In this document: piece by piece, positions 3,204 through 53,750 of the stretch
Layout of the letters: every line of letters starts with the position of its first letter
Position numbering within the stretch: position 1 is the first letter of the stretch
NCBI GenBank assembly: GCA_963790545.1
Contig: CAWBPA010000024.1
Location: forward strand, 94,014 to 158,013
DNA: 64,000 nt
Direction: 5' to 3'
Source: Vicinamibacterales bacterium
Lineage (GTDB): Bacteria > Acidobacteriota > Vicinamibacteria > Vicinamibacterales > JAMQPK01
Notes under the pieces: generated by a model
Told to the model about the DNA's origin: nothing
What the model saw: the letters and a program-made list of their open reading frames with translations, nothing else
Databases searched by the model: none
Made by a program: the position numbers and the translations under genes

Positions 3204-3212
3204 AACAAAGTC

Positions 3213-4187: not shown

Positions 4188-4287
4188 GGCCCGTGCCGAC
4201 TTCTACGGCCGCAGCGGGGAACGCACGCGTCGCGACGCCCTGGATCAGGACCGCTCGTGCACGATCGACGTTGAGGCGGGTCACAAA

Positions 4288-4358
4288 GGAAAAAGGGGTC
4301 GGGAGTCTTTTTCTGTTCGTACGAATCACCGGAAAAAAGACTCCCGACCCCTTTTTCC
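4288..4358. terminator. strong stem-loop (25-nt perfect arms) downstream of the GHL10 gene
   Basis: ggaaaaaggggtcgggagtcttttt ... aaaaagactcccgacccctttttcc; T-run on the minus strand. Confidence 0.8.
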
Positions 4359-7920: not shown

Positions 7921-8881
7921 GTGTGTCAACCTAGGGCAGTTTTCAAAACGACTTCCATGGTTGGTCCCGAAACATCAGCACGGCTCCTCGAGACCTATCT
8001 CGACCATCTCCGGATCGAGCGGCGCCTTGCCGATCACACGCTCGAAAGCTATCAACGGGACCTGCTCAAGCTCGCCCAGTTTGCCGCCGGTCGAAGCCAG
8101 ACGCTCGAGTTGCTGGATCGGCACGATCTGGATCGGTTCGTTCAGGAGCTGTCCGGGCAAGGTTTGTCCCCGCGCTCGGTAAGCCGGGCCGTCGCCGCGG
8201 TCAGAAGTTTCTACCGGTTCGTGACCCTCGAGCGCCGGCGCGATCAGAACCCGGCCGAAGATCTCCAGGCACCGCGCGCGTGGCCGGCCCTTCCGAAGTT
8301 CCTCTCGGCTGAAGAGGTCGACCGCCTCATTCAGATACCCGACACCACGACGGTGCGCGGGCTTCGCGATCGCGCACTCATCGAGCTTCTCTATGCAACC
8401 GGCCTCCGCGTTTCGGAGCTGGTGCAGCTGCGGGTGACCGACGTCAACCTCGAAGCCGCGTACCTGTCGTGTACGGGGAAAGGCGGAAAGCAGCGCGTCG
8501 TGCCGATTGGTGACGAAGCCAGCTCCTGGGTCAGCCGCTACCTTTCCACGGCGCGGCCGGCGCTCGTGGGCCGGAAAGCGCACGGGAAACCTGGCGGGGC
8601 GGAGCGCTTGTTCGTGAACGCGCGCGGGGGTCGCGCGCTGTCCCGCGTCGGGTTCTGGAAGATCCTCAAGCAGTGACGCCACAAAGGCGGGGTTGGGACG
8701 AGCGTTGAGTCCACATGTGCTGCGCCACTCGTTCGCCACGCACCTGCTCGACCGCGGCGCGGACCTGCGGGCCATCCAGCTCATGCTGGGTCATGCGGAT
8801 TTGTCCACCACGCAGATCTACACCCACGTACTCGAGGCGCGCCTTCGAGTCGTCTACGACAAATATCATCCGCGTCCGTAA
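7921..8881 (+). CDS. xerD: tyrosine recombinase XerD, frameshifted by one extra base at about 8674
   Basis: N-terminal SAM-like domain ([22 protein letters not shown]). The first frame ends ...FWKILKQ*. The next frame continues [15 protein letters not shown]...[15 protein letters not shown] with the catalytic R-H-R-Y residues. Removing one G in cagtGacgcc restores QYATKAGL. Confidence 0.8.
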
Positions 8882-16510: not shown

Positions 16511-18747
16511 ATGACTAAGGTCGCCATTCTCTGGCACATGCACCAGCCGTACTACGAGGACCTGGCCACGGGCGAGCACATCATGCCCTGGGTGAGGCTG
16601 CACGCACTCAAGGACTATTTCGGCATGGTCGCGCTTCTGCGGGAGTTTCCAAAGGTTCGAATGACCTTCAACCTGGTGCCCTCGCTGCTCGTTCAGATTC
16701 AGGCCTTTGCCGACGCCAACGCCCGGGATCGGTTCCTGGAACTCGGGCTCAAGCCCGCCGCGCAGTTGAGTGACGACGACCGAACGTTCGTCGTGGCGAA
16801 CTTCTTCCACGCGCAACGTGCCCGCATGATTGAGGCTTACCCCCGGTACGCCGAGCTTTTCGACCAGCGCGAGCGCGCCCGACGCATGAACCTGACCGGC
16901 GACTCCGGCCCCCGGGAACAGGCGCGCGTCTTCGACGAGTCCGATCTGCGAGACCTGCAGGTATGGCAGAAGCTCGCGTGGATCGACCCGATGTACCGCG
17001 CCGAATGATCCCCGTGTACGAGCCTTGGTCAAGCAGGACCGGGGGTTCAGCGAGGACGACAAGTTGACGTTGCGGGCCGTCGAGCTCGAGCTGCTGCAGC
17101 GCGTGATTCCGGAATATCGAGCGGCCGCCGAAAGGGGACAGGTCGAGCTCTCGGTATCGCCGTTCTACCACCCAATCTTGCCGCTCCTGTGCGATACGGA
17201 CGTCTACCTGCGAAACGACCCGCAGGCCAAGCTCCCTCGCCAGCGATTCCATCATCCGGAGGACGCGCAAGAGCAGTTGAATCGTGCGGTGACGTACTAC
17301 GAAGAGCTGTTCGGGCGACGGCCACGAGGACTCTGGCCCTCGGAGGGGTCGGTCTCGGACGAGATGGTTCCGCTCGCGGCGGAGGCCGGCATTCAGTGGC
17401 TGGCCACCGACGAAATCATCCTTGCCCGTTCGCTCGGTCGTCCGATGCCACGAAGCGGCCACGACCGTTTGGAGCATCCGGAACTGCTGTACCGCCCGTA
17501 TCGAGTGTCAACCCCGCAGGGCGATGTGACATGCCTCTTCCGCGATCATGCGCTGTCCGATCTCATCGGGTTCAGCTATTCCAATTGGTCTCCTCACGAC
17601 GCCGCGCGCGATCTGATCGAGCGACTGGTCGACGCGGGCCGCCGGTATTCGGAGCGAACCGGCGGGGAAGAGGCGACCATTTCAATCATCCTGGATGGGG
17701 AAAACGCCTGGGAGCATTACGAGGGCGGAGGACGCCCATTCCTGCGGGCTCTATACCAGGGGCTTTCGGAGCATGTCGACCTGAAAACCGTGACCATGGC
17801 CGAGGCGGCCACCGGACCGGCAGAGCGTCTTCGATCGCTCTACCCGGGTTCCTGGGTCAATGGGGACTTCTACATCTGGATTGGCCATGCCGACGATCGG
17901 AAAGCCTGGGGTCAGCTTGCCGAAGCGCGTGACACCTATACCCAGGCAGCCGAGTCACCGACGGTCGATCCGCAATCCAAAGCGCGGGCCTTCGAAGAGA
18001 TTCTCATTGCGGAAGGCAGCGACTGGTGCTGGTGGTACGGCGACGATCACTCGTCCAGCCACGACCTGGAATTCGACGACCTGTTTCGCCGACATCTTCG
18101 GAACGTGTATCGACTCCTCCGGAAACCCGTCCCCGAGGAGCTGTACGTCAGCAACATCACGTCCCCGCCGACTCAGGGGACCGTCATCCAGCCCGCCGGC
18201 TTTGTGCGCCCGGTCATCGACGGGGAGGTCTCGAACTACTTCGAGTGGCTTGGCGCAGGCCTCGTGGACGGCCACGATCTGGCGGGAACGATGCACCAGG
18301 CCGACGCGGCGACGACCCACCTGGTCAACGCCCTGCACTTCGGGTTCGACTTGACGCGACTCTTTATCCGAGTGGACCTGGTTCGGCGGGCGGCCGATGT
18401 CCTGGGCTCTGGCCGGTTCGTGTTCCGGGTCATCTTTCTCGTGCCCACAACACTTGAGGGTGGACCTGACCCGCCACGGCTCCGCCTGGCACCGGTGGTG
18501 GCTCCGGCCGAACCCGACCAACGGGAAACTCTCCCTCCCAGCCTCGCTCGACGCCCAAGCCTCCGTGGGTGACATCGTCGAGCTTGCCATCTCTCTTGAA
18601 GCGCTTGGCGTCAAGCCGGGCGACCCTCTCGCGTTCTCAATCTCGGTCCTGGACGACGGGATCGAGGTGCAGCGGTATCCAGGCTTCAGCGCCATCGAAA
18701 CCCACGTGCCAACGTCCCAGTTGGAAGACCTGAACTGGCGAGCGTAG
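16511..18747 (+). CDS. glycoside hydrolase family 57 (alpha-glucan branching / amylopullulanase-like), broken by two frameshifts (~17006 and ~18460)
   Basis: GH57 N-terminal signature VAILWHMHQPYY. The reading frame changes at ...WIDPMYRAE* and continues as DPRVRALVKQDRGFSEDDK. The C-terminal beta-sandwich part continues in a third frame to 18747. Confidence 0.7.
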
Positions 18748-19090: not shown

Positions 19091-19097
19091 ATATTTG

Positions 19098-19911
<814 letters not shown>

Positions 19912-19919
<8 letters not shown>

Positions 19920-20668
19920 GGTCGATGACCTCCTCACACAAGCTGTAGTATTCGGTCGCGCCCGTCGAATCGGGGGCAAACGTGAAAGATCGATTCCTTG
20001 TAGGCCGGACTTTCCTCGAGGCGGACGCTCTTGGTGATGACCGTCTTGAAAACTTTCCCGCCAAAGACCTTCTGAATCTGACCGCGGATATCGCGGGCCA
20101 GCGCGGTCCGCTTGTCGTGCATCGTGATGAGCACGCCAAGAATCCGCAGATTCGGGTTCGGCCGCGCACGCACCTTTTCAATGGTCTCGAGGAGGTCGTC
20201 GGTGCCTTCAAGGGCGAAGTATGACGACTGGATGGGAATGAGCAGGTGCGTGGACGCGACCAGGGCGTTGACGGTCAGGAGCCCGAGCGTCGGCGGGCAA
20301 TCGATGACGATATGCCGGAAGTGTCCCAGGACCGGCTCGAGACGGTCTTTGAGCCGATAGTGGGAGTCGATCTCCCCCACCAGCTTGGACTCCAGCTTCG
20401 CCAGCGCGATGCGCGCGGGTGCCAGCGAAAGGTTTGTGAGCCCGGTACGCTGAATGACGTCGGTCATCGGCACGGCCTGCTCCGCCAGCGCGTCGTACAC
20501 GCTCCGGCCGATTTGCGTGATGTCCAGAAACGACATCGAGCTGTTGCCCTGGGGATCGAGGTCAATCAGAAGAGTGGGCTTTCCACGCAGTGCGAGTCCC
20601 GCCGCCAGGTTGATGGCGGTTGTGGTCTTCCCTACCCCGCCTTTTTGGTTGGCAATGGCAACAATCAT
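19912..20668 (-). CDS. parA: chromosome partitioning ATPase ParA/Soj, frameshifted near 19985
   Basis: Walker A KGGVGKTT and deviant Walker motifs. The conserved C-terminus (...FTFAPDSTGATEYYSLCEEVIDRA) lies in another frame (ORF 19912-20211). Confidence 0.75.
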
Positions 20669-20864
20669 TCGCCGGCGAGCATGAAACTGACGTTTAACGC
20701 GACTGGCGGATTCATGCTGACTACGCGGTTGCTCATGGATTCGCGTAGATCCGCGTAGATCCGCGTTGGAGAGCCGCGGGTATTCTACGGACGCCGATCG
20801 AGAACTGTCAAGATAAGAATCGCGAGAAATTCGCTATAAGGCGGGCAATCGAGCACCGACTCCC

Positions 20865-21353
20865 CTACATCTTGTATTTCCCAAGCTCCTCGGGATCGAG
20901 GCTCTCGAGCCACTTCTGAAGGCGATCGGTATCGGGCTTATCTGCAGAAATGTCGACCGTCTTGGCGTTGTCGATGACGGTCTCTTCCACGAAGATGGGC
21001 GCTCGAGCGCGCAGCGCCAGCGCAATCGCATCGCTCGGGCGGGCATCGATGGCAATCGTGTCGCCGCTCGTGGCCAGGTAGACCAGGGCGTAGAACGTAT
21101 TCTCCTTGAGGTCGCAGACGACGACCTTCTGCACCGAGGCCTTGAGGTCGGTGATGATGTTCTTCAGCAGATCGTGCGTCATCGGACGCGGCGTGCTGAT
21201 GTTTTCAATCTGCAGCGCAATCGCGTTGGCCTCGAAAATGCCCACCCAGATGGGCAGCACCTTCTGACCGTCCGAGTCGCGAAGAATAATGATGGGCATG
21301 TTGGTGATGGGATCGACCATCAAGCCCTTGATTGTCATCTCGATTTGCATCAC
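20865..21353 (-). CDS. bifunctional nuclease-family protein (BFN/DUF151)
   Basis: ~160 aa; length and residue pattern (ILRDSDGQKVLPIWVG..., ...IAIDARPSDAIALALR...) recall DUF151. Confidence 0.55.
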   Translation of the reverse strand: MMQIEMTIKGLMVDPITNMPIIILRDSDGQKVLPIWVGIFEANAIALQIENISTPRPMTHDLLKNIITDLKASVQKVVVCDLKENTFYALVYLATSGDTIAIDARPSDAIALALRARAPIFVEETVIDNAKTVDISADKPDTDRLQKWLESLDPEELGKYKM

Positions 21354-21375
21354 TACGCCCTGCTCTAAAACTAGG

Positions 21376-22730
21376 CCCCGACTGACAAGCTGTCAAGCGT
21401 CGTGTCGAGGACACGCTCGCCCGACAAGCTGTTGGGCCCTCCGCGCGTAATGCGCACGTGCACGAAAGCGTCCGACCGAGTCAGGCGAACCGGCGAAATT
21501 CACGACCGTATTGCCGCTCGTGCGCCCGGAGACCTCCCAGTGTCGCCGACGACTGGTGGAATCGACAAGAACTTCTTGCTCGCTCCCCACGGCGGCGGCG
21601 TGCAAATCGAGCTGGATGGCGCGCTGGCGCGCTTGCAGCTCCACGATGCGGCGCGTCTTCACGTCTTCACTCACGTCGTCCGGCATCCGCTGGTTCGCCA
21701 GGGTGTTCGGACGAGGCGAGTATTTGAACGAGAACATGCTGTGGTAGCGCACGCGCTCGACCAGCGAGATCGTGTCCGCAAAGTCCGCCTCGGTCTCGCC
21801 GGGGAACCCGACGATCATATCGGTCGAGAGCGCGATTTCCGGAAGAGTCTCCCGCAAGCTGTCCACGAGCCTGAGATAGTCATCGCGGGAGTGACGGCGA
21901 CGCATGGACGCCAGGACGCGGGTCGAGCCGGACTGAACGGGCAGATGCAAATGCCGGCAAATCTTGGGTAAGTCATGCATCGCCTGGATCAGTCGGGGCG
22001 TCACGTGGCGTGGATGCGGGCTGGCGAACCGGATTCGCCGCACGCCAGGCGTTTCATGCACGGCTTCGAGCAGCGCCGCGAAATCGCAGCCAGGATCGTC
22101 CGGCGCCTGGTAGTGATTGACGATTTGGCCGAGCAGGTGGATTTCGGGGTGCCCGGAATCGGCGGCCGCTCGCACTTCCTCGAGGATGTCCCGGCGCGGC
22201 CGCATCCGCTCATGCCCGCGCGTATACGGCACGACGCAGAACGCGCAGAACTCATTGCATCCTTCAATGATGGTGACGTACGCCTTCACCGGATCCGTCC
22301 GGCGCACGACCCCCAGAGGAAACGACACATCGTCGTAGGGGCTGATGTCGATGAACGGACCCGGAACGTCGCGTGCGCTTGCCTGCTCGATGAGCATCGG
22401 CAGTCGTTTGGCTCGCTGCGTGCCCAGCACGACGTCGACATTGGGGGCACGTTCGATGATGGCGGCCCCATCCTGCTGTGCGACACATCCGGTCACCGCG
22501 ACGACGGGTCGCGACGTCGCATCCCCGAACTCGCGCAACTCCCCCAGGCGCGTATAGAGTTTTTCTTCGGCCCTCTCACGGACGCTGCACGTGTTGATGA
22601 CGATGACGTCGGCGTCCTGTTCGTCGTGCGCGAGCTCGTATCCGGCTGACTCGAGCAGACCCGCCATTCGCTCGGAGTCGTGCACGTTCATCTGACAGCC
22701 GTACGTTTCAATGAAGTATCGTCGCGCCAT
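21376..22730 (-). CDS. miaB: tRNA-i6A37 methylthiotransferase MiaB, C-terminal frameshift near 21465
   Basis: UPF0004 N-domain YGCQMNVHDSE, radical-SAM CNEFCAFC. The TRAM-domain end (FVHVRITRGGPNSLSGERV) reads in another frame and ends at about 21376. Confidence 0.8.
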
Positions 22731-22735
22731 GGAAT

Positions 22736-24464
22736 TCAGTCTCCTATCCTAACGCTTCGTCGAGGCTGTTTCGCCTTCGCCCTTTCGCTTTCGCCTTTCG
22801 CCTTAGATTCGTTCTGCGCGAGGTGCCACATCTCCTTCGCGCTCACTCGCGCGTTCTCCGTGACGCGCGCGCCGCCGAGCATGCGCGCCAGTTCTTCTAC
22901 CGCTTCGGTGTCATCGAGCCGACTGACGCGCGTGAGGGTCCTCCCCTGCCGCACTTCCTTGCTGATGCGGTAATGAGAGCTGGCATGCGCGGCAACCTGT
23001 GCAAGATGTGTGATGCACAGTACCTGCGCGACGCCACCGAGACCGCTCAGTTTCCGACCAACGACATCCGCAACTCGTCCGCCAATGCCGGCATCCACCT
23101 CGTCGAAGATCGTGGCCCGGCCAGGTCGATCGGCCGCTGCCAGGGACTTGATGCCCAGCATGATTCGCGAGAGCTCTCCACCAGACGCAATACGCGCAAG
23201 GGGCCGCGGATCTTCGCCAGGGTTCGCCGAGAGGTAGCATTCCGCGCGGTCGATTCCGCGAGCGGTCCACCCCTGCTCGATTCCATTCGTCGCGAGTGGC
23301 GTGTCGGCTCGCTCGAGCCGGACTTCGAAAGAGGCGTGTTCCATGGCCAGCTCGGCAAGCGTCCCCTCGAGTGCGCGGGCGAAACGTGCGGCCGCCTGCG
23401 CCCTCTCGCGAGACAACGCGCGCGCGTGTCGCAGAAATTCCTCGGATGCCGCCATTGACCGCATCGGTAAGCGATCCGATGCGTTCCTCGGCGTGCTCGA
23501 ATGCCTCAATCTGAGCCACGAATGCGTCGCGCGCGGCAATGGCCTGGTCCAGCGTTGGACCGTACTTCCGTTTCAACCGCTCGAGCAGCGCCAGACGCTC
23601 TTCAATGTGTTGCAGCCGTGCAGGAGACGCATCAATGCCGGGCCGCATAGTCACGTGCAAAGAATGCGAGGTCTTCGAGCTGCCCCTTGACGGGATCCCG
23701 CAGCTCGACGAACGGCTGGAAGTGCGGCTCAATTGAGGCAAGCTCGGTGAGCTTCCGCCAGACGTGTCCGAGCTGAGGCAGCACGCCATGGTCGCTCTCG
23801 TACAGCGTCGCGTAGCGTTTCTGCGCAGAGCCGCTGCAGTCGTTCTGCACTCGCGAGCACACGCTTCGATGCGGACAGTTCGTCATCCTCGCCGGCACGG
23901 AGGGCGGCTTTCTGAAGCTCGCCAAGCCTGGAAGCGCAGCAGGTCGAGGCGAGCCGCCTTTTCACGCTCGTCGATCTGCAGGCGCGCCAGCTCGTCGCGT
24001 CGATCGCGCCAGGCGCGCGAACGCCACCGCGACGGCCGCGCGACGCTCCTCGAGGTGCGCGTACGAATCGAGCAGATCGAGGTGGCTCTCCGGGTTGAGG
24101 AGCACCTGATGTTCGTGCTGTCCGTGAAGCTCGACGAGCGATGTCGTCGTTTCTTTGAGCGCAGCCGGCCGAAACCTGGGCACCATCAACAAAGGCACGG
24201 CTGCGTCCCTGGGCGGTCACCTCGCGCCGCACGACCACGGTGCCGCCCTGCGGGGTTTCGAATACCGCCTGGACTGCGGCCTGGGACTTCGCCGGTTCGC
24301 ACCAGGTCGGACGATGCGCGGTCGCCCATCAAGAGCCCCACGGCCTCCACGAGCATCGACTTGCCGGCACCGGTTTCGCCAGTCAGCACATTGAAGCCCG
24401 GCTGGAACTCGACCTCCAGGCTTTCAATGACCGCGAGGTTCTGGATGTTGAGCTGGCGGAGCAT
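22736..24464 (-). pseudogene. recN: DNA repair protein RecN, split into at least five frame fragments
   Basis: N-terminal fragment MLRQLNIQNLAVIESLEVEF..LTGETGAGKS; middle fragments with RREVTAQGRSRAFVDGAQV and LVELHGQHEHQVLL; C-terminal ASGGELSRIMLGIK..DEVDAGIGG..QVLCITHLAQVAA..ARMLGG. These lie in different frames across 1.7 kb. Confidence 0.75.
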
Positions 24465-24513
24465 GCCGAGAAAGTGGAGAGATGAGCAAAGCCGAGAACT
24501 CCAATCCTACCAT

Positions 24514-25368
24514 ATGTTTGACAGTGGTCAGGTCACGTGCTACTCTTACCCGTTCGCGCTGTCCCAGCGGCGCTCTAGCCATGCCTCGGAGGCCCGTTTG
24601 CGCACGCTTGGATCCTTTTTCCTCGCCTTGCAGGCGCAAGGTGAGGTCACGCCTGAATCGGCGCTCGACGGAGACATTCTCGGACTCGTAAGCCGCGCGA
24701 CGCCCGTCTCGTGGGCCGTGCTCGCCATCCTGCTGCTCTTCTCGGTCACGTCTCTCGGCATCGTGCTCTACAAGTTCCTCACGTTCGGGCGAAGCGCGCG
24801 CCAGACGAAAACGTTCCTGGACGTCTTCCGGCGAAGCAGCAAGTTTTCGGAAGTGCAGGCTGTCTGCCCTTCTCTGGCCGCGAGTCCGTTGGTCGGCATG
24901 TTCCAGGCGGGCTACGCCGAGCTCAATCTTCAACTCCGACAGGGCGCCACGCACTCCGCCGCGGTCGGTGGCAGTCCGGCAGCCGTGCCGGGACGTCCAA
25001 CACTAAAGAGCCTGACAGCTGTCGATCGGGCACTCTTGCGTGCGGCAACCATCGAGGTGAACAAGCTGGAACATGGCGTGTCGTTTCTGGCGACCACGGC
25101 CAGCATCACGCCGTTCATCGGGTTGTTTGGCACGGTCTGGGGCATCATGAGCGCGTTTCAGGGCATTGCCAGCGTGGGATCGACCAATCTCGGCGTCGTC
25201 GCCCCGGGCATCGCCGAAGCGCTCGTGGCCACGGCGGCTGGATTATTCGCGGCCATTCCAGCGGTGTTCTTTTACAACCTGTTCACCCGGCGCATCAAAC
25301 TCTCTTCAGCCGAAATGGACGACTTCGCCATCGAGTTTCTGAATATCGCGGAACGGAATTTCACGTAA
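24514..25368 (+). CDS. tolQ: MotA/TolQ/ExbB proton-channel protein
   Basis: Three TM helices and the conserved ...FIGLFGTVWGIMSAF...GIAEALVATAAGLF...; the exact start is uncertain (ATG at 24514 or a downstream TTG). Confidence 0.8.
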   Translation: MFDSGQVTCYSYPFALSQRRSSHASEARLRTLGSFFLALQAQGEVTPESALDGDILGLVSRATPVSWAVLAILLLFSVTSLGIVLYKFLTFGRSARQTKTFLDVFRRSSKFSEVQAVCPSLAASPLVGMFQAGYAELNLQLRQGATHSAAVGGSPAAVPGRPTLKSLTAVDRALLRAATIEVNKLEHGVSFLATTASITPFIGLFGTVWGIMSAFQGIASVGSTNLGVVAPGIAEALVATAAGLFAAIPAVFFYNLFTRRIKLSSAEMDDFAIEFLNIAERNFT

Positions 25369-25404
25369 GCGAAGTAGATCAGTATTCTGTCTTCTGATTT
25401 TTAG

Positions 25405-25869
25405 ATGCCCACGATTCAAGCTGATCACGAGGAGAGTGGCACCGGTCGCTTGCGGCGAGGGCGGCGGGTGTCCACCTCTCTCTCCGAGATCAACGTCGTC
25501 CCTCTCGTCGATGTCATGCTCGTGCTGCTCATCATCTTCATGGTCACAGCGCCAATGATGCAGCGTGGGATCGACGTCAACCTGCCCGTTTCTCGTCGCG
25601 CCCAGCCAATCACCGACGAGCGGCTCTTCGTCACTGTGCCCCTCAGCTTCCGCAAAGATCAACGCGTCCTTCTCGGTGACGAAGCTATCAGCGTCGACGT
25701 GCTCCACGAGCGCATCAGGCAGGCGCTGTTGACACGAACCGACAAGGATGTTTTTCTGCGTGGGGATGGTGCCATTCAGGTTCAAGAACTGGTGTCGGTC
25801 ATGGATCGTCTGAAAGATGGCGGCGTCGAACACGTGGCCATCGTGTCCGATCTCCCCCGCCGCCGGTAA
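25405..25869 (+). CDS. tolR: ExbD/TolR biopolymer transport protein
   Basis: INVVPLVDVMLVLLIIFMV TM segment and periplasmic domain. Confidence 0.8.
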   Translation: MPTIQADHEESGTGRLRRGRRVSTSLSEINVVPLVDVMLVLLIIFMVTAPMMQRGIDVNLPVSRRAQPITDERLFVTVPLSFRKDQRVLLGDEAISVDVLHERIRQALLTRTDKDVFLRGDGAIQVQELVSVMDRLKDGGVEHVAIVSDLPRRR

Positions 25870-25872
25870 CGC

Positions 25873-26648
25873 ATGAACACGAGCATGGAGCCCGTCACCG
25901 AAGTTCTCCAGGCGCGGGCCCGGCCAGCCGGAGGGATGGAGAGCATGTTGATGCTCTCACTGGTGGCACACGGAGCGGTGCTGGCCGCACTCGTGCTCGT
26001 GGCGCCGTCGTGGCGCGGGACGCAGACCGCGCCGCGCGAAGTCATGCAGATTAGTCTCAGTGGCTCGGTGGGCCCGCCAGACAGGCGGGCTGACGCCCAT
26101 CGCGGGGAGACCCGTTCAGCAGGCGCTCGACACGCCCCCGCGTGCGCCGGTCCGGCCGCCGGCGGCCAGCGAACCGGAAATGACGGTGCCGGCACCAAAC
26201 GTGCGGGCAAAACCGCCCGTGCAGAACCCGGCTAACACGCGCGGCAAGACCCCGACGACCGGCCCGGAGGTCAAGACGGGGTCAGCCATCACGGAAACGG
26301 GTGCGAAGGGTGCCGGGCTTCGGGTTGTCGAGCGGCGGGGGTCAGGGCACCGGGGCTCAGTTGGACGTTGGCAATTTCTGCTGCCCGGAGTACCTCGTCA
26401 CGATGCAACAATTGATCAGGCGAAACTGGAACGAGAAGCAACCGAATGGCGGCGAGGTCATCGTGAAGTTCACGATCCAGCGTACGGGAATCATTTCAGA
26501 TATCGTGCTCGAGCGGTCGAGCGGGTACGCGGCTCTCGACCTGGAATCCCAGCGCGCGCTCTCACTCACGCGGCAGCTTCCCCCGCTGCCGGCGCAGTTT
26601 CCGGACTCCACATTGACTGTTCACCTCAGCTTTCAGTATCAACGCTAA
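25873..26648 (+). CDS. TolA/TonB-family energy transducer, two frameshifts
   Basis: TM anchor MLMLSLVAHGAVLAALVLV (frame 1), Pro/Ala-rich spacer (frame 2), then a TonB C-terminal domain ...GNFCCPEYLVTMQQLIRRNWNEKQ..VIVKFTIQRTGIISDIVLERSSGYAALDLESQRAL (frame 3). Confidence 0.7.
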
Positions 26649-26829
26649 TGATGCGGTACTTTCCCTTCTTGTCGATTGTCCCGTTGCGACAGGTCTTACT
26701 CTGGTCGCTGCACAGAATCCTCCATCGCCGGGATCGGCGCAGGCGCCAACGCCCCCTGCGCCAACGCAGAGTCAGTCCGAGATCAGCCTCATCATCAGTG
26801 CGGACGCCAGTGCGCCTCCACGGTATGCC

Positions 26830-28056
26830 GTGCCCGATTTCATCGCGTTGTCGTCCGATGCCGAGACGGTTGCGGTGGCGAAGACAATCGGTCAGGTGCT
26901 GTGGGATGACCTCGAGTTCGAGCGCGAGTTCTACATGATCCCGCGCGATACCTACCGCACCATCCCGACATCGTCTACGGTCAGCGACGTGCCGTTCGAT
27001 CGCTGGCGCGAGCTTGGTGCTGACGGACTGCTCATCGGCACCGTTCAGAAGACGGGCACCATGGTGCGCATCGAGGTCCGCTTGTACAACGTGCGGACGC
27101 GACAATCGGTTTTTGCCAAGGAATACAGCGGTGGCGCCGGAAACCCCCGGCTGTACTCGCACACGATCGCCGACGAAATCCATCACCAGCAGCGCGGCTT
27201 GCGGGGCGTGGCTCGAACGAAGCTCACCTTCTCCTCCGATCGGGACGGCGATCGCGTCGTCGGCACCGTCGAAAAACGAGAGGTCAAGGAGATTTACATC
27301 AGCGACTATGACGGCGCGAACCAGCGTCGGATCACGGTCAACCGCAATCTCAATGTCTTTCCGGTCTGGACGCCCGACGGTAGAGGCATCTTGTACACGA
27401 GCTTCCTTCGCGGGTATCCTGATCTCGTCCTGTCGCTCATTTATGAGGGCGTGAGAAGGGAGCCTGCGGCAAAACATGCGTCGGATACCAACGGCGATCG
27501 ACCTCAGAACCGACTCGGCGTCGTGTCCCCGGACGGCAAACGCATCTGTTTTTCGTCGAACCGCGACGGCAACCCCGAGCTTTACGTCATGAACATCGAC
27601 GGCACCAATGTGTTCCGGTTGACGAATCATCCGGCGGCAGACATCACGCCGACCTGGAATCCGCAGGGGACGCAGATTGCTTTCACGTCCGACCGGCGCG
27701 GGCAGCCTCAGCTCTATTTGATCGGCGCTGATGGCACCAATCTCTCGGCGCTCACGTCAGAGTCGTACGCCGATCGACCGACATGGTCGACACTGGGCAC
27801 CGAGATTGCTTATGCAGCACGGACGGGACCGGGGTTCGACATCAAGATGATCGACCTGGCAAATAAACAAGTGCGGCAACTCACATTCGGCGAAGGCTCG
27901 AACGAGAGTCCGGCTTTTGCACCAAACGGACGCCACATCGCGTTCATGTCCACTCGTGCTGGCAAGTCTCAGATTTTCAGCATCGCGCGGGACGGCAAAG
28001 ACGTAAGGCAGCTCACAAGGACGGGAAACAACACGGCACCAAACTGGTCCCAATAA
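26830..28056 (+). CDS. tolB: Tol-Pal system beta-propeller protein TolB
   Basis: TolB N-domain and six-bladed propeller repeats (DG..I.F.S.R.G...LY). A signal-peptide-like sequence (LSLLVDCPVATGLTLVAAQ) lies upstream in the same frame back to ~26650, but the ATG ATG at 26649 is in another frame. This indicates an indel or an unusual start. Confidence 0.8.
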   Translation: MPDFIALSSDAETVAVAKTIGQVLWDDLEFEREFYMIPRDTYRTIPTSSTVSDVPFDRWRELGADGLLIGTVQKTGTMVRIEVRLYNVRTRQSVFAKEYSGGAGNPRLYSHTIADEIHHQQRGLRGVARTKLTFSSDRDGDRVVGTVEKREVKEIYISDYDGANQRRITVNRNLNVFPVWTPDGRGILYTSFLRGYPDLVLSLIYEGVRREPAAKHASDTNGDRPQNRLGVVSPDGKRICFSSNRDGNPELYVMNIDGTNVFRLTNHPAADITPTWNPQGTQIAFTSDRRGQPQLYLIGADGTNLSALTSESYADRPTWSTLGTEIAYAARTGPGFDIKMIDLANKQVRQLTFGEGSNESPAFAPNGRHIAFMSTRAGKSQIFSIARDGKDVRQLTRTGNNTAPNWSQ

Positions 28057-30197: not shown

Positions 30198-30551
30198 AAA
30201 TGACCACCAAAGTCGACAAACCTTGGGGCTACGAGCTCCACTGGGCGCTCACCGATCGGTATGTCGGCAAGGTGTTGCACGTGCGCGCCGGGCACGCATC
30301 TGAGTCTTCAGTATCACAACCGTAAGGACGAAACGATTCTCCTGTGGTCGGGCAAGATTCTGATGGAGGTTCAGGAGGGCGACAGTCTGGTCAAGCGCGA
30401 GATGCAGCCCGGCGATCGGCTGCATATCACGCCAGGCACGATCCACCGTATGACCGCCATCGAAGACAGCGACATCATGGAGGTCTCAACACCGGAACTC
30501 GACGATGTGGTGAGACTCGAAGATCGCTACGGACGGGTGGAGAAGATTTAG
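30198..30551 (+). CDS. cupin-domain protein, frameshift near 30290
   Basis: MTTKVDKPWGYELHWALTDRYVGKVLHVRAG... in one frame, continuing ...SLQYHNRKDETILLWSGKILMEVQEGD...PGDRLHITPGTIHRM in the next (the two conserved cupin motifs). Confidence 0.65.
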
Positions 30552-34484: not shown

Positions 34485-36260
34485 CTACAGGTCACTTGTC
34501 ACTGGACCGACCGACACGCCCCCGAGTGTCGTCAACAGGTACCGTTCGATGTCCGGTACGCTCGAGAGCCGAAGCACGTGCGCAGCCACGCGGCGCAACT
34601 GCGACGCATCGGCTTCCGCCAATACCTGCCGGGCGGTCGGAATGGCCGATGGGGCCATGCTGAACGACGTGAGGCCCATGCCGACCAGGAGCGCCAGCAG
34701 GACCGGGTCGGACGCCATCTCACCGCACACCGACACGGCTCGTCCCTGACGCGAGGCGGCGCGCCGCACCATGCGGATGAGTCGAAGAATCGATGGGTGA
34801 AGCGGCTCGTACAGGTGTGAGACCCGGTCGTCGGTGCGATCGACCGCCAGGCAGCACTGGATGAGATCGTTGGTGCCAATGGTGAGAAAGTCCGCCTCGC
34901 GAGCCAGCAGGTCCGACGTAAAGGCGGCCGATGGCACCTCGATCATCACGCCAACCTGAACGGCGGCCATCGATTCGCCGCGAGCTTTCAGTTCGGCCAT
35001 CGCATCGGCGAGCACAGCTTTCGCTTCCCTGAATTCCTCCACTCCCGAGATGAACGGGAACATGATGCGAAGGTCCCCATGGCGGGCTGCTCGCAGGAGC
35101 GCGCGCAGTTGGCGTCGCAACAGTTCCGGCCGTTTCAGCGCTAACCGGGTGGCGCGCAGCCCCAGACGAGAGCGGCCGTGCTCGGTCGGCTCACTCCAGG
35201 ATGGTCGGACCATCGCGTGGTGGCGCGCGACCAGCTGATCTTCGTCGATGTCGAACGTCCTCACGGTCACCGGTCCGGGGGCCATGCGCTCGAGCATCTG
35301 ACGGTAGACTTCGAACTGCACATCTTCGGTGAGCTCTTTCGCCGTCCGATCCATCAGCAGGAATTCGGAACGATACAGGCCGACGCCATCGGCGCCCTGA
35401 TGCCGGGCCGAGACCACATCGGACAGGAGTTCGATGTTCGCCTCCAACCTGATCGACACACCGTCCCGAGTCTTCGTCTCTTCGCCAGCGGGAATCGTGC
35501 GGAGTTCGGGCCTGGCGCTCGCCTGCCGCTGGACGTCGGTCACGAGACTGGCCGGCGCGTCCAGCACCAGTGAGCCCTCGCTGCCATCGATGACCACGAG
35601 CGTCCCCGGTACGGCTCGCCGGCTGGCATCGTGCAAACCCACGACGGCCGGAACATGAAGGGAGCGCGCCAGAATGGCCGTGTGATACGTGCGACTGCCG
35701 GCATCGGTCGCAAACGCCCTGATGTGCGACCAGTCGAGCTGAGCCGCCATCGACGGCGTGAGCTCATCGGCAATCAAGACGCACGGCTCGTCGAAGTCTT
35801 TGAACAGATCACGGGGACTGGAGGCATCATGGCGCAGGTTCATCCGCAGGCGCCCGACCAGATCGCTCAAATCCTCTTTCCGTTCGCGAAGGTACGGGTC
35901 TTCGACCGCGCTGAACACGCTCGAGATCTCGTCGAACACCCGTTGCACGGCCCATTCCGCATTGACCCGCTGCTCGCGAATCATCGCCACGGCGCGGGTC
36001 AGCCACATGGGGTCGTCGAGCATCAGCAGGTGAGCATCGAACAGCGACGCCAGCTCATGTCCCGCGCCGGACGACAGCCGATCCCGGATGGCGGCCAGCT
36101 GCTGCCGCGAGCTGGCGCGCGCGGCCTCGAGGCGGCCCAGCTCGCGTTCAACGCGTGCCGCAGAAATCGAAAACCGCAGAACCTGGGTGAAGTGGGTCAG
36201 CACGACGGCCCGACCCGCCGCCACCCCAGGAGAAACGCCAATGCCTTCGAGACGTTGCAC
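34485..36260 (-). CDS. ptsI: phosphoenolpyruvate-protein phosphotransferase (PTS enzyme I)
   Basis: Full-length EI with PEP-utilising motifs (GLYRSEF, IGTNDLIQ, SVCGEMA) and the phosphohistidine domain. Confidence 0.9.
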   Translation of the reverse strand: MQRLEGIGVSPGVAAGRAVVLTHFTQVLRFSISAARVERELGRLEAARASSRQQLAAIRDRLSSGAGHELASLFDAHLLMLDDPMWLTRAVAMIREQRVNAEWAVQRVFDEISSVFSAVEDPYLRERKEDLSDLVGRLRMNLRHDASSPRDLFKDFDEPCVLIADELTPSMAAQLDWSHIRAFATDAGSRTYHTAILARSLHVPAVVGLHDASRRAVPGTLVVIDGSEGSLVLDAPASLVTDVQRQASARPELRTIPAGEETKTRDGVSIRLEANIELLSDVVSARHQGADGVGLYRSEFLLMDRTAKELTEDVQFEVYRQMLERMAPGPVTVRTFDIDEDQLVARHHAMVRPSWSEPTEHGRSRLGLRATRLALKRPELLRRQLRALLRAARHGDLRIMFPFISGVEEFREAKAVLADAMAELKARGESMAAVQVGVMIEVPSAAFTSDLLAREADFLTIGTNDLIQCCLAVDRTDDRVSHLYEPLHPSILRLIRMVRRAASRQGRAVSVCGEMASDPVLLALLVGMGLTSFSMAPSAIPTARQVLAEADASQLRRVAAHVLRLSSVPDIERYLLTTLGGVSVGPVTSDL

Positions 36261-36263
36261 GAT

Positions 36264-36527
36264 CTATTCACCAAATCCTGATTCTACGAGCCGGCACAGG
36301 GCCTCGACGGCCGCCTGTTCATCCTGGCCGTCGGCTGAAATCGTCAGCCACGTTCCCCGTGCGGCCGCCAATAGGAGAATTCCCATGATGCTCTTGCCGT
36401 CCATGGCCTTATCTTCGCGCGACACGCGCACCTGCGACTCGAACCGTGTGGCGATCTGAACGAACTTCGCTGCCGCCCGCGCGTGCAGGCCAAGCTGATT
36501 CACGATGGTGACGCGGCGTGAAATCAC
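36264..36527 (-). CDS. ptsH: phosphocarrier protein HPr / NPr
   Basis: 87 aa; NQLGLHARAAAKF with His15-type active site. Confidence 0.85.
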   Translation of the reverse strand: MISRRVTIVNQLGLHARAAAKFVQIATRFESQVRVSREDKAMDGKSIMGILLLAAARGTWLTISADGQDEQAAVEALCRLVESGFGE

Positions 36528-36559
36528 TTGAAGCTTAAGCCTTGAGCCTTGCGCCTTTA

Positions 36560-36961
36560 TTAGGTTGCCCGCATCAGATCAGATGCAACCCAGATGGCGG
36601 TTTTGGCGTACTTCGCCAGCTCACGGGCAACCGCCAGCAAATCGGGTGCGCCCCGGAGATCCCTCGCCTTGATCAGCATCGGCAGATTGACACCGGTAAT
36701 CACCTCGACCTTGCCGGCTTCGAGCAACGGGATGCAGAAGTTCGATGGCGTCCCGCCGAACATGTCGGTGAGGATGAGCACGCCCGATGGACTCCTAATC
36801 CGATCCACCGCCTTCGCAATTTGCTCCCGCGCGTCGTTCACGTCGTCATGCCACCCGATCGACACGGCCACGCACTGGGGCAGCTCGCCGACGATCATTT
36901 CGGCGGCATTGAGCAGCTCGGTGGCCAACCGTCCGTGCGTTACCACCACGACGCCAATCAT
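36560..36961 (-). CDS. PTS EIIA component, mannose/fructose family
   Basis: MIGVVVVTHGRLA...ILTDMFGGTPSN pattern of EIIA-Man; sits where ptsN lies in the E. coli rpoN operon. Confidence 0.75.
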   Translation of the reverse strand: MIGVVVVTHGRLATELLNAAEMIVGELPQCVAVSIGWHDDVNDAREQIAKAVDRIRSPSGVLILTDMFGGTPSNFCIPLLEAGKVEVITGVNLPMLIKARDLRGAPDLLAVARELAKYAKTAIWVASDLMRAT

Positions 36962-37004
36962 TTGACTTTTAACCTTTGCCCTTTGACCTTTGCCCTTTGA
37001 CCTT
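36962..37004. repeat. tandem heptamer repeat (CTTTGMC x5-6 on the plus strand; GKCAAAG on the mRNA strand) between rapZ stop and the EIIA start
   Basis: ctttgcc ctttgac ctttgcc ctttgac ctttcaa; on the minus strand each unit carries an AAAGG SD-like core upstream of the EIIA ATG. Confidence 0.75.
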
Positions 37005-37922
37005 TCAACTGTCCTTCAGAATATCGCGATGCACGACGCGCGTGCGAACGCCCGCGACGGCGCCGAGCGGCGTGCGCAACGCTTCCGCGACCATCACCGA
37101 TCGATGCCGTCCACCCGTGCAGCCAATCGCGATGGTGAGATAACTCTTGCCTTCGGCGACGTACTGCGGGAGCACGAACATGAGGAACGACGTGAGGCGC
37201 GACAACAGATCCTTGGTGGACCTGTAGCGGCGCATGAACCGCACGACCGTCGGGTCGCGCCCGGTGCGCGGTTTCAGTTCGCGAACGAAGTGCGGGTTCG
37301 GCAGAAAACGCACGTCGAACACCAGATCGGAGTCGACCGGGACGCCAAACTTGTACCCGAAGCTCAGCAGGGTGACAATGAGCCCGGCCTGCTTTTGCAG
37401 ACCGGCAGCGAACGCCTTGAACGCCCTCCGCAAATCGTGCACCGTCATGTCCGAGGTGTCCAAAATAACATCCGCGAGGCGACGAATCGCATCGAGGCGC
37501 GCGCGCTCGTCGCGAATGCCCTCGGCCACCGATCGGGTTGGCGCGAGCGGATGGGGGCGGCGGGTTTCGCTGAATCGCCGCACCAGTGCGGCATTGCTGG
37601 CATCGAGAAAAATCAGCGCCGGGTGAAGCCCCTTCATCGCGCGGAGCTGGCGCAGAACCCTGGGAAAATGATCGAGGAATCCTTTCTCGCGGATATCCAC
37701 GACGATAGCCACCCTCGAGAGGCCCTCTCGCCGCGCCAGATCCGCCAGCGTAGGAATCAGTGTTGTCGGAAGATTGTCGACGCAGAAGTACCCGAGGTCT
37801 TCGAGCGCGCGGACCGCTTGAGACTTGCCGGAGCCCGACAGGCCCGTCAACACGACAAACCTCGAGCCCCCGCCTCGAAATTGCGGCTTTCGATCGCCGA
37901 TCTTCTTGGGCTTCTTGGTCAC
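37005..37922 (-). CDS. rapZ: RNase adapter protein RapZ (YhbJ/YvcJ P-loop family)
   Basis: Walker A GLSGSGKS, conserved ...CVDNLP..., C-terminal TGGRHRS motif. Confidence 0.88.
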   Translation of the reverse strand: MTKKPKKIGDRKPQFRGGGSRFVVLTGLSGSGKSQAVRALEDLGYFCVDNLPTTLIPTLADLARREGLSRVAIVVDIREKGFLDHFPRVLRQLRAMKGLHPALIFLDASNAALVRRFSETRRPHPLAPTRSVAEGIRDERARLDAIRRLADVILDTSDMTVHDLRRAFKAFAAGLQKQAGLIVTLLSFGYKFGVPVDSDLVFDVRFLPNPHFVRELKPRTGRDPTVVRFMRRYRSTKDLLSRLTSFLMFVLPQYVAEGKSYLTIAIGCTGGRHRSVMVAEALRTPLGAVAGVRTRVVHRDILKDS

Positions 37923-37951
37923 GACAGCGGGCGGGGGGTGGCCTGCTGCAC

Positions 37952-38500
37952 TTACGCCTCGGGCTCGATCAAGCCGAAGTCACCGTCCTTTCGCCGATAA
38001 AGGACGTTGATTGAATCCGTGCTGGCGTTTCGGAACACGAGCAGGCCATCCCGCGCGGCGTCCACTTCACGTGCCGCCTCTTCGACGGTCATGGGCTTGG
38101 CGGCATAGCGAGACATGCGCACGATCCGCGGACCCACTGGTTCGGGCGCGGGCGCTTCCGACGCGGCCGCGCGGCTGGCAACGGTTTTCGCCGGTGTCGC
38201 GTGTCGTTTTCGCTCCTGCCACTTCCCTTTCACCCGCTTGCCCTGCTGCACGACCTTCTCGACCGATCCGGTCAGCGATTGTTCCCACGACGCATGATCG
38301 GCGGCACCGCGCAGCATGTGATCGCCGCGCGTGTGCACGACGAGCTCGGCCACGCGCCGATGCTTCTCCCGCGTCAGGATCACCTGCGCCGAGACGATGG
38401 CATCGCCAAACATGCGATCGAGTTTCGCCAGCTTGCGATCGACGAGTTTCCGAATGTGGGGGGTGATGTCGACGTGTCGTCCGGTCAACACGAGGCGCAT
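37952..38500 (-). CDS. hpf: ribosome hibernation promoting factor (long form)
   Basis: N-terminal RaiA/YfiA domain (LTGRHVDITP..., VVHTRGDHMLRG) and a C-terminal dimerisation extension. Confidence 0.85.
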   Translation of the reverse strand: MRLVLTGRHVDITPHIRKLVDRKLAKLDRMFGDAIVSAQVILTREKHRRVAELVVHTRGDHMLRGAADHASWEQSLTGSVEKVVQQGKRVKGKWQERKRHATPAKTVASRAAASEAPAPEPVGPRIVRMSRYAAKPMTVEEAAREVDAARDGLLVFRNASTDSINVLYRRKDGDFGLIEPEA

Positions 38501-38508
38501 GGTTCTCG

Positions 38509-39951
38509 CTAGTACAGCACCTTTCGCTGGTTGGAAGTGGGAATCTTCAGCTCTTCGCGATACTTGGCAATCGTCCGCCGCGCGAGCACGAGCCCCTCGT
38601 GCTGCAGAATGCTGACGATCTTCGAGTCGCTGAGCGGCCGGCGTGGGTCCTCGTTCTCGATGATCTTTCGAATGCGATTCTTGATCGTGACCGAGGAGAC
38701 GCTCTCGCCGTACGAGCTGCTGATTCCGCTGTGGAAGAAGTACTTCAGCTCGAACACCCCCTGCGGGGTGTGCATGTACTTGTTGGTGACCACACGGCTC
38801 ACGGTGGACTCGTGCATGCCGATGTCGTTGGCCACATCGCGCAACACCAGTGGCCGGAGATGTTCGATGCCGTAGTCAAGGAAGTCGCGCTGGAAGTTGA
38901 TGATGCTCGTGGCCACTTTGTGAATCGTTTTCTGGCGCTGCTCCACCGATTTGATGAGCCAGAGCGCGGAGCGGAACTTGTCTTTCACGTACGCGCGGGT
39001 TTCGCTGTTCTGCTCGGTGTTCTTGTCGAGAAGACGCCGGTACACGGGGCTGATGCGCAGCTGGGGCAGTCCCTCCTCGTTCAGCACCGCGACGTACTGA
39101 TCTTCCACCTTCATGACGTACACGTCCGGAATGACGTAGTGCGCCTGTGAGGGGTTGTACCGGCTTCCCGGCTTCGGGTCCAGGTGCTTGATGATCTCGA
39201 CGTGCTCTTTGAGCTCATCGATCGACAGTCCAAGGCGACGGGCAATTTCCGGAATTTGATGATTCTGCAGGAGACGCAGGTGATCGACGACGATTTTCTC
39301 GGTCGGCGTCCCTTCGAGCCCGATGTGCCGGATTTGCAGCAGCAGGCACTCCTGCAGGTCGCGCGCAGCCACGCCTGTCGGGTCGAAGCGCTGAATCAAC
39401 TGCAGCGCCTGCTCCACATCGGCAACCGGCCACGGTCCCATCCCCGCAATCTCGTCCAGCGAGGCCACCAGATACCCATCGTCATCGACGTTGCCGATGA
39501 TGGCCGTCCCGATCGCCCGCAGTCGCTCATCGTCGCTCTGCATGGACAGCTGCCACATCAGATGGTCGGAGAGGGAGGTCGAGGTGGACAGCGTGTTCTC
39601 AATTGGGGGCAGCTCTTTGACTTCCTGCGGTGTGCGGGGCCGGTAGCCATCGTCCAGATAGTCACCGAAGAAGTACTCGTAGTCGCTGTCGTCCCAGTTG
39701 TCGCCCTTTTCCGCCGCCGCAGTGGCCGCTTGTTCTTCGCCCAAGGTCTTCTCGGCCTGCGCCGCGGCTTCGGCCGGCTGCAGTTCCTCGGTCGGGACCT
39801 CCTCCAGCATCGGGTTCTCGACCATTTCCTGGTTGAGCAGATCGACCAGTTCCAGCGTGGACATCGGCAGCAGCTTGATCGCCTGCTGGAGCGATGGCGT
39901 CAGAATGAGCTTTTGAACGAGTTTGGTGTGCAGCTTCTGCGAGATGGCCAT
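38509..39951 (-). CDS. rpoN: RNA polymerase sigma-54 factor
   Basis: Region I (LTPSLQQAIKLLPMSTLEL), core-binding region, HTH, and the RpoN box ARRTIAKYRE. Confidence 0.92.
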   Translation of the reverse strand: MAISQKLHTKLVQKLILTPSLQQAIKLLPMSTLELVDLLNQEMVENPMLEEVPTEELQPAEAAAQAEKTLGEEQAATAAAEKGDNWDDSDYEYFFGDYLDDGYRPRTPQEVKELPPIENTLSTSTSLSDHLMWQLSMQSDDERLRAIGTAIIGNVDDDGYLVASLDEIAGMGPWPVADVEQALQLIQRFDPTGVAARDLQECLLLQIRHIGLEGTPTEKIVVDHLRLLQNHQIPEIARRLGLSIDELKEHVEIIKHLDPKPGSRYNPSQAHYVIPDVYVMKVEDQYVAVLNEEGLPQLRISPVYRRLLDKNTEQNSETRAYVKDKFRSALWLIKSVEQRQKTIHKVATSIINFQRDFLDYGIEHLRPLVLRDVANDIGMHESTVSRVVTNKYMHTPQGVFELKYFFHSGISSSYGESVSSVTIKNRIRKIIENEDPRRPLSDSKIVSILQHEGLVLARRTIAKYREELKIPTSNQRKVLY

Positions 39952-39990
39952 GGGTCTGTCGCCGCTCGATGTCCTCTCCCTAATCTTAGC

Positions 39991-40716
39991 TCAGTCCAAC
40001 CGAAAGTCGGCTCCAAGGTAAATTCTGCGCACTTCTTCGTCCGCCGCCAGACTGGCGGGTGTACCGCTGCGAAACATCACGCCATCGTGCACGATATAGG
40101 CGCGATCCGTAATCCGGAGCGTTTCCCGCACATTATGGTCGGTGATGAGCACGCCAATGCCGCGCTCTTTGAGGTGAAAGATAATGTTTTGAATATCGGT
40201 CACCGCAATCGGATCGATGCCTGCAAACGGCTCATCGAGCAGGATGAAGCGCGGCGAGATCACGAGCGCCCGCGTAATTTCGGCGCGTCGACGCTCACCG
40301 CCCGAGAGCGTGTACGCGGGCGCTTGCGCAAGAGGCGTCAGGTTCAGCTCGGCGAGCAGCTCGCGGAGCCTCGTCTTGCGTGCCGTGGCGTCGAGATCGA
40401 GGGTTTCCAGGATCGCGAGAATGTTCTGCTCCACCGTCAAGCCACGGAAAATGGACGGCTCCTGCGGCAGGTACCCGAGTCCCTTGCGGGCCCGCAGATA
40501 CATGGGGGCCGAGGTCACATCTTCGCCGTTGAGCACGACGCGGCCCGAATCAGGTGAGGTCAAGCCGACCGTCATGTAAAACGTCGTGGTCTTGCCGGCG
40601 CCGTTCGGGCCGAGCAGGCCGACGACCTCGCCCGACTGCACTTCAAGGCTCACACCGCGTACCACCGTCCGCCCGCCGTAAGACTTGGTGAGGTCGTGCG
40701 TCCGGAGTGTGGACAT
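39991..40716 (-). CDS. lptB: LPS export ABC transporter ATP-binding protein
   Basis: Walker [10 protein letters not shown], signature LSGGERRR, Walker B ILLDEP, and the LptB-specific C-terminus. Confidence 0.9.
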
Positions 40717-40719
40717 GGG

Positions 40720-42909: not shown

Positions 42910-43071
42910 TGGTCTGATTATGGTGCGATTTGCGACTCCAGGGCGGTGAATTTCAACGCAGAGAGCGCCGAGGTCGCGGAGTTCGCAGAGAATTCATCAT
43001 TACAATCTCTGCGTCCTCCGCGGATTCTGCGAACCCTGCGTGGAGTCGTGGAGTGTGAAAAATCGGGTAGT

Positions 43072-44808: not shown

Positions 44809-44865
44809 ATTTTTTGCTGCAATCTTCTCCTCGCAGAGGTCGCGGAGCGCGCGGTGGACGCAGAG

Positions 44866-45261: not shown

Positions 45262-45340
45262 AACGCAGAGGACGCAGAGGACGCTCCTGTCCGCGGCCTC
45301 TGCGGTTGCTCTGCGGCCACCGCGAGGAGCCTTGTCGATT
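45262..45340. repeat. direct and inverted 8-9 nt repeats (CGCAGAGGA x2 / CCTCTGCGG, CTCTGCGG) forming a hairpin between convergent genes
   Basis: acgcagagga cgcagagga cgctcctgtccgcgg cctctgcgg ttg ctctgcgg. Confidence 0.7.
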
Positions 45341-45345
45341 AGACG

Positions 45346-49883: not shown

Positions 49884-49885
49884 AT

Positions 49886-49966
49886 CAAAGACTCAAGTCT
49901 GAAGTCATGAAGGCTGAAGTCTGAAGAAATTCTGACTTCAGACTTCAGCTTCTGACTTCTGACTTG
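49886..49966. repeat. palindrome built from tandem heptamers (GTCTGAA x ~5, loop, GACTTCA x ~4) between the guaA stop and the dnaE start
   Basis: ...gtctgaa gtcatgaa ggctgaa gtctgaa gaaattc tgacttca gacttca gcttctgacttctgacttg; 13-bp perfect core stem ctgaagtctgaag/cttcagacttcag. Confidence 0.8.
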
Positions 49967-53747: not shown

Positions 53748-53750
53748 AAA

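Follow-up and report, generated by a model that had tools for sequence, protein, structure and literature searches.

Our comparison with close relatives indicates that the many frame changes interrupting conserved genes in the window, a 64,000-nucleotide stretch of DNA from a soil bacterium of the Vicinamibacterales (Acidobacteria), very probably arose as errors of the consensus when a metagenome-assembled contig was built from long reads, and that the organism's own genes, recN and mutS included, are intact and functional. Relative to four assemblies of ~97% identity, the coding DNA of the window contains at least 34 frame-breaking insertions. An earlier, sequence-only reading had listed about 25 clustered frame changes in conserved genes, and these are indeed present in the deposited sequence, in larger number than listed. 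The same reading considered assembly indels likelier than real decay, a preference borne out by the relatives, which lack the extra bases, and by the substitutions in the broken genes, which are as synonymous as those in the intact ones.

The base-level reference consisted of four independent assemblies of relatives (L161/L162/L167, L166, L164 and L163) at ~97% nucleotide identity; among their contigs, one bears a short-read style name and another comes from JGI. Nucleotide alignment to these close relatives gave the base positions of the extra bases. None of the four assemblies carries any of the window's extra bases and the affected genes are intact in all of them: orthologues at 93-99% identity keep a single reading frame throughout, and RecN (568 aa), MiaB, ParA, TolA, TolB, GH57, cupin, XerD, GHL10, Psd, TsaB and MutS (880 aa) are full length. 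A MiaB query against species-representative genomes and JGI metagenome contigs returned, among the matches listed, relatives of at most 74% identity, too distant for base-level comparison and used for protein-level frameshift mapping only. A codon-usage HMM, to which gene boundaries and frameshifts are indistinguishable, was taken as a guide only; it overlooked the net-zero cluster 53308/53350/53385 as well as the close pair in guaA, and assigned 53909-54102 to a wrong or ambiguous strand. Look-ups by exact protein sequence, run for the window's MiaB, EIIA, TolR, MetK and AdoHcyase, gave no match. The window's MetK is the same protein as P0241 and its truncated 589-aa MutS the same as P0364, both on the same 850,352-bp public MAG contig (NCBI, ENA).

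In recN (22749..24464, minus strand), nucleotide alignment places seven one-base insertions at 24289, 24168, 24017, 23926, 23816, 23637 and 23451, spanning 840 bp, and a two-base insertion at 22767 towards the 3' end of the gene, while a frameshift-aware protein-to-DNA alignment with nine RecN homologues yields seven frame changes of one extra base each. The proposal that recN is multiply frameshifted therefore stands, its figure of at least four events being too low. The corrected RecN has 573 aa and is 95% identical to the intact 568-aa RecN proteins. Its codon changes (79 synonymous vs 20 non-synonymous) give no indication of relaxed purifying selection, and among substitutions seen in the window's recN but in no relative, 60 of 75 (80%) over the gene and 28 of 36 within the hot spot fall on codon position 3.

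Neighboring genes of the same block are affected more lightly. An extra base at 19988 in parA (19912..20668, minus strand), 76 nt ahead of the stop, puts the final ~25 residues out of frame, and another at 21471 in miaB (21371..22730, minus strand) replaces the C-terminal ~33 residues; miaB also displays two changes that look like real divergence, the compensating pair 22452/22456 and, at 22519, a +3 that keeps the frame. The two events read earlier in the tolA/TonB-C-like gene (25873..26648, plus strand) were recovered by alignment to the relatives as extra bases at 26080 and 26317, and two extra bases interrupt tolB (26648..28056, plus strand) at 26680, ~10 codons inside its signal peptide, with the remainder of the gene intact. 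Intact genes are also found here: tolQ and tolR (24514..25869, plus strand), which serve as internal controls within the affected block, parB (19098..19919, minus strand) and a gene with a bifunctional-nuclease domain (20865..21350, minus strand).

Elsewhere in the window, extra bases occur in a Big_1/PKD gene (1240), in a beta-lactamase-like gene (4157) and a GHL10 gene (5048) that lie together at 3200..5436 on the minus strand, in a cupin gene (30200..30551, plus strand; 30300) and in a BamB-like gene (52514), while GH57 (16511..18747, plus strand) combines three extra bases (17002, 18454 and 18530) with one missing base (18490). The single extra G that had been pinned to cagtGacgcc in xerD (7957..8880, plus strand) is matched exactly, at 8675. 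guaA is frameshifted as had been noted, with the correction that the 5' part of the gene (51014..51560, minus strand) carries two extra bases, 51181 and 51209, separated by 28 nt. Missing from the earlier reading was a second hot spot (53.3-54.1 kb), which belongs to a region (52689..55200) made up of a 446-aa hypothetical gene on the minus strand, with extra bases at 53308, 53350, 53385 and 53926, and the N-terminal region of a kinase on the plus strand, with extra bases at 54091 and 55147. At 58651..60947 (minus strand), psd and tsaB have one extra base each (59129 and 60690, respectively) and enclose an intact rimI and an intact DUF465 gene. Finally, mutS (61049..63692, plus strand) is interrupted by one extra A at 62725, resulting in a truncated 589-aa product in the public record; the corrected MutS is 99% identical to the 880-aa MutS of the relatives. 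The part between 34.4 and 50 kb had been described as frameshift-free, which holds for all of the genes then named: in the clean stretch (34485..49892, minus strand), ptsI, HPr, EIIA, rapZ, hpf, rpoN, lptB, lptC/A-like, recJ, accA and dnaE are intact. It does not hold to the letter, as one extra base is present at 45018 together with three intergenic extras. The extra base at 45018 falls inside a doubtful 83-aa ORF.

The direction and the context of the events are both peculiar. One-base indels in coding DNA comprise 35 insertions and 4 deletions, that is 33 vs 2 once two compensating pairs are removed (binomial p = 3.7e-8), as compared with 18 vs 13 in non-coding DNA (coding vs non-coding, Fisher p = 0.004). 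Homopolymer errors, which had been proposed as the cause, do not account for them, since the inserted base is unlike both of its neighbors in 23 of 33 cases (53% expected under random insertion) and none of the 33 insertions creates a run of four or more, though the window holds 513 such runs. The inserted bases mirror the composition of the genome; no motif is shared around the 33 insertion sites (no column above 0.23 bit) and no regular spacing of the events was found. Sister long-read assemblies display one-base extras of their own, at sites other than those of the window: the kinase gene of L166 has them at window positions 54422, 54446 and 55345, and the MutS of a sister long-read assembly (P0363) is shifted at its C-terminus.

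The events are clustered along the window (chi-square over 2-kb bins, p = 2.6e-5), with seven of them within 900 bp (scan p = 4e-4) and a longest event-free coding stretch of 11.4 kb (p = 0.011), and their density rises with local divergence from the relatives (Spearman rho = 0.49, p = 0.006). One plausible scenario is that single spurious bases, occasionally two, entered the consensus sequence where few reads back this strain's version, and low read support in the blocks most diverged from the relatives would explain why errors concentrate there. Low coverage fits the clustering. Reasoning from the algorithm, we would expect a graph-based consensus at low depth to retain a base seen in just one or two reads, if the consensus step scores up for an extra base and gains nothing for a skipped one; our literature search found no usable report of such an insertion bias in graph consensus at low depth. 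Against this scenario, the seven errors within 840 bp of recN share one diverged block with the error-free tolQ and parB, which would require a very local drop in support. Benchmarks of long-read soil metagenome assemblies have described indel noise that yields frameshift-truncated proteins, the more so the more complex soil data become, and one long-read metagenome assembler includes a racon-like polishing step (PMC13087279). The window resembles this indel truncation, the target of the IDEEL length-ratio test, in that single-base indels break conserved genes and proteins are shorter than their homologues while gene content is otherwise normal; it differs in that its events are almost purely insertions with no homopolymer tie. 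The residual errors of nanopore and HiFi data are typically homopolymer-linked and often deletions, a pattern unlike that of the window.

A particular form of artefact, in which co-assembled strains were merged and the consensus wrote both alleles where they differ, is a possibility that we regard as distinctly the less probable origin of the extra bases. At 23816, the window reads ACGCTAC whereas L162 has AC-CTAC and L163 ACG-TAC; at 60690, two relatives disagree at exactly that base and the window carries two bases; and error density follows local divergence. Against this, clear both-allele cases amount to only two, the mismatches adjoining insertions are without significant enrichment (12 of 35 insertions have one within 3 columns, vs ~26% expected) and nothing in the substitutions points to a mixed consensus.

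It is tempting to see in the interruption of both mutS and recN real pseudogenes, in a strain that lost these and other genes by true frameshifts, perhaps as an indel mutator deficient in mismatch repair. The frameshifts exist in the deposited sequence and are clustered, and in having several of them per gene with DNA-repair genes among the targets the window recalls the pseudogenes of reductive decay and of mutator strains. Selection speaks otherwise. The changed codons of the frameshifted genes are synonymous in 459 cases and non-synonymous in 139 (76.8%), as compared with 555 and 169 in the intact genes (76.7%; Fisher p = 1.0) and with a neutral expectation of 25.7% synonymous, and these counts demonstrate that purifying selection on the affected genes is undiminished. 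All genes are full length in the corrected frames, with no internal stops, deletions or larger lesions, every relative is intact, down to 97%-identical relatives from which the events are missing, and the affected genes include normally indispensable ones (tsaB, psd, guaA and tolB). A deletion bias is well established for bacterial pseudogenes, to which the 33:2 excess of insertions runs counter, and loss of mismatch repair produces indels in homopolymer runs, a spectrum unlike that of the window, where runs of four or more are free of events. Decay of recN and mutS in a mutator lineage is thus rejected on selection, lesion spectrum, context and intact relatives; the earlier reading had considered such a lineage worth excluding, and it is very unlikely, being excluded as far as sequence alone permits.

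Even less credible, if only slightly so, is a variant in which genuine extra bases were acquired very recently, a strain lacking mutS (62725) and recN having undergone a burst of context-independent +1 insertions as a minority genotype of one soil sample. If true, this would imply a mutational process confined to insertions, without parallel among the described spectra of mismatch-repair deficiency and too recent to have left a trace of relaxed selection. Programmed recoding, whereby +1 ribosomal frameshifting or transcriptional slippage bypasses the extra bases and full-length proteins are made, is rejected as next to inconceivable: although the events are all of the same sign, removal of one base gives a full-length conserved protein and a single base in excess of the protein frame is reminiscent of prfB-type programmed +1 frameshifting, the window has neither a conserved shift site nor any slippery or stimulatory motif common to its sites (0.23 bit per column at most), these sites are unconserved in and absent from the 97%-identity relatives, two-base insertions also occur (22767 and 26680), and to our knowledge no bacterial system requires as many as seven shifts within one gene.

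The value of consensus errors as the preferred explanation lies mainly in data quality, spurious bases numbering about one for every 1.6-1.9 kb of coding sequence and reaching one in 120 bp locally. Spurious bases in the 850-kb contig would be the reason why its annotation lists truncated RecN, MutS, GuaA, TsaB, Psd, TolA, TolB and others, and the 589-aa MutS is already present in a public protein collection. Such errors pass on to pseudogene counts, to inferences of repair-pathway loss, to completeness estimates and to protein databases. Accumulations of frame changes that are insertion-only, context-independent and clustered in strain-diverged blocks, with synonymous bias unchanged, may offer a quick, read-free diagnostic for consensus errors of this kind.

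The target region carries parB, parA, the bifunctional-nuclease gene, miaB and recN, in this order, on the minus strand, followed after recN by tolQ, tolR, tolA and tolB on the plus strand, in a window of 62% G+C whose MiaB finds its best relatives among Vicinamibacterales/Acidobacteriota MAGs. MetK and the truncated MutS product of the window are identical, respectively, to the public proteins P0241 and P0364 (589 aa), which are encoded on one 850,352-bp contig in NCBI and ENA. The window thus belongs to a very long public MAG contig, whose deposited record contains the frameshifts. A purpose-written protein-to-DNA aligner tolerating frame changes, queried with nine RecN homologues from syntenic loci, placed seven frame changes in recN, where the sequence-only reading had counted at least four; all nine homologues were concordant, and each change fits best as a single additional base in the window sequence. 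Extended to every homologous ORF of 15 loci, the aligner returned unanimous single extra bases in xerD (8674), GH57 (17000 and about 18447), parA (19984), tolA (two sites) and the cupin gene (30302). Domains crossing frame junctions were sought with a codon-usage HMM and Pfam scans of stitched translations, and were found in GHL10, the beta-lactamase-like gene, GH57, xerD, the cupin gene, guaA, tsaB and mutS, while all junctions in 34.4-50 kb are ordinary gene boundaries.

An exact match to the window RpoN led to a 211-kb ENA contig (ERZ28493234, ctg4074625_9x_l), which is distinct from the window and about 97% identical to it. Searches with corrected RecN, corrected MutS and MetK returned more of this contig (loci L162 and L167) and three further assemblies, one represented by a JGI contig (L163) and two by ENA contigs, of which L164 bears a name of the short-read style and L166 is 149 kb long. 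RecN (568 aa), MiaB (451), ParA (251), TolA (257), TolB (468), GH57 (744), cupin (115), XerD (307), Psd (211-214), TsaB (234) and MutS (880) are intact in all of them. Against these relatives the window has a single extra base in recN at 24289, 24168, 24017, 23926, 23816, 23637 and 23451, all seven missing independently from both L162 and L163, and likewise in the Big_1/PKD gene (1240), the beta-lactamase-like gene (4157), GHL10 (5048), xerD (8675, where the extra G proposed earlier, cagtGacgcc, is exact), GH57 (17002, 18454, 18530), parA (19988), miaB (21471), tolA (26080, 26317), the cupin gene (30300), guaA (51181, 51209), the BamB-like gene (52514), a 446-aa hypothetical gene (53308, 53350, 53385, 53926), the kinase N-terminal region (54091, 55147), psd (59129), tsaB (60690) and mutS (62725); two extra bases are found at 22767 (recN) and 26680 (tolB). 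In the GH57 C-terminal region, the extra base at 18454 and a missing one at 18490, 36 nt apart, cancel each other; they may represent either two errors or a genuine shift and its compensation within a variable segment.

Altogether, single bases are inserted at 35 sites and deleted at 4 in about 55 kb of alignable coding DNA, so that the dense frame changes first noticed in conserved genes are confirmed on a larger scale than claimed. Two insertions and two deletions pair up, compensating, 4-7 nt apart and look like real divergence as aligned. The events are clustered, as had been stated (chi-square over 2-kb bins, p = 2.6e-5), with seven within 900 bp (p = 4e-4), a second hot spot of five at 53308-54091 and an event-free coding stretch of 11.4 kb (p = 0.011). 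The interval 34.4-50 kb, described earlier as frameshift-free, keeps all its named genes intact but contains one coding-labelled event, at 45018, in a doubtful 83-aa ORF.

Between the cupin and FG-GAP genes lies a small strain-specific island (30576-33288), whose genes for an NfeD-like protein, a flotillin/Band_7 protein and a putative carbonic anhydrase (Pro_CA_2) are all missing from the 211-kb ENA contig. In-frame length differences in the LptC/LptA-like gene (+30 nt, 41469), the 446-aa hypothetical gene (+48 nt, 53770), miaB (+3 nt, 22519) and the cupin gene start (+3 nt, 30205) look genuine. Intergenic stretches at 1050-1140, 5688-5710, 6794-6897, 36961-36971 and 42933-43081 are composed of short repeated words, e.g., GGTTCTAGG and CCTTTGAC, and their length is hypervariable between strains.

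Unpaired one-base events in coding DNA comprise 33 insertions versus 2 deletions (binomial p = 3.7e-8); non-coding DNA, at 18:13, shows the balance that natural indel polymorphism should produce. In nature and in strains deficient in mismatch repair alike, one-base indels are found predominantly in runs. Here the inserted base is unlike either neighbour in 23 of 33 cases (a random base at a random site would give 53%) and none of the 33 makes a run of four or more, the window having 513 such runs, which argues against the homopolymer errors suggested earlier. No common motif was found at the 33 sites, and the identities of the inserted bases track genome composition. Once the extra bases are removed, no internal stop remains in the affected genes, whose changed codons are 76.8% synonymous (459:139), against 76.7% in 33 intact genes (555:169) and a neutral expectation of 25.7%. 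Substitutions in recN private to the window fall at codon position 3 in 60 of 75 cases and, inside the 840-bp hot spot, in 28 of 36; this equal share indicates that the base-adding process brought no substitutions and that the gene is under full constraint. The broken genes include the normally indispensable tsaB, psd, guaA and tolB, in line with the earlier remark that essential genes are affected. Direction, context, selection and gene identity thus support the cause preferred from the outset, i.e., that the frame changes are assembly indels and not biology. Were the extra bases real, they would have to stem from a burst that was extremely recent, confined to insertions and blind to context. 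For loss of recN or mutS, or for a mutator lineage, alternatives that were to be excluded, we found no evidence. Old decay is ruled out by the same four lines jointly. Pseudogene decay failed every applicable test. Programmed frameshifting likewise failed every applicable test.

The pattern fits a familiar class, the indel-truncated proteins of long-read assemblies, but its events depart from the usual description in being insertion-only and homopolymer-independent. The 850-kb contig size and the soil-type community imply a long-read origin. Event density climbs with divergence between window and relatives (Spearman 0.49, p = 0.006), which amounts to 5-8% in 18.5-25.5 kb, about 8% in 51-52.7 kb and 1-3% elsewhere. 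Because substitutions in the diverged blocks are mostly synonymous, the divergence itself is real, and 18500-25500 and 51000-52700 look like segments in which co-existing strains form a true mosaic or have recombined. We propose that fewer reads back this strain's version in these blocks and that a graph-based consensus would there retain a base present in only one or two reads; if the best path scores from an extra node and not from a skipped base, a one-sided insertion bias would arise at very low depth. At 23816 and 60690 both alleles of a strain polymorphism appear to stand in tandem. The kinase gene of L166 has its own single extra bases at L166 positions 3287, 3312 and 4211 (window 54422, 54446 and 55345), where the window frame is open. 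L166 also has split DS and MacB genes, and in the 944-aa MutS P0363 the C-terminus is shifted. Sister long-read assemblies thus have extras of their own elsewhere, and this class of error extends beyond the window's contig. Frameshift-truncated proteins are a recognised error class, commoner in soil nanopore data, according to a recent assembler paper that also describes racon-like polishing in 500-bp windows (PMC13087279). The tandem-allele sites, the sister-assembly extras and this published class all fit the low-support consensus proposed here. In practice, the MAG needs polishing, and its truncated proteins, some of which are already in public protein collections, should not be taken for gene loss.
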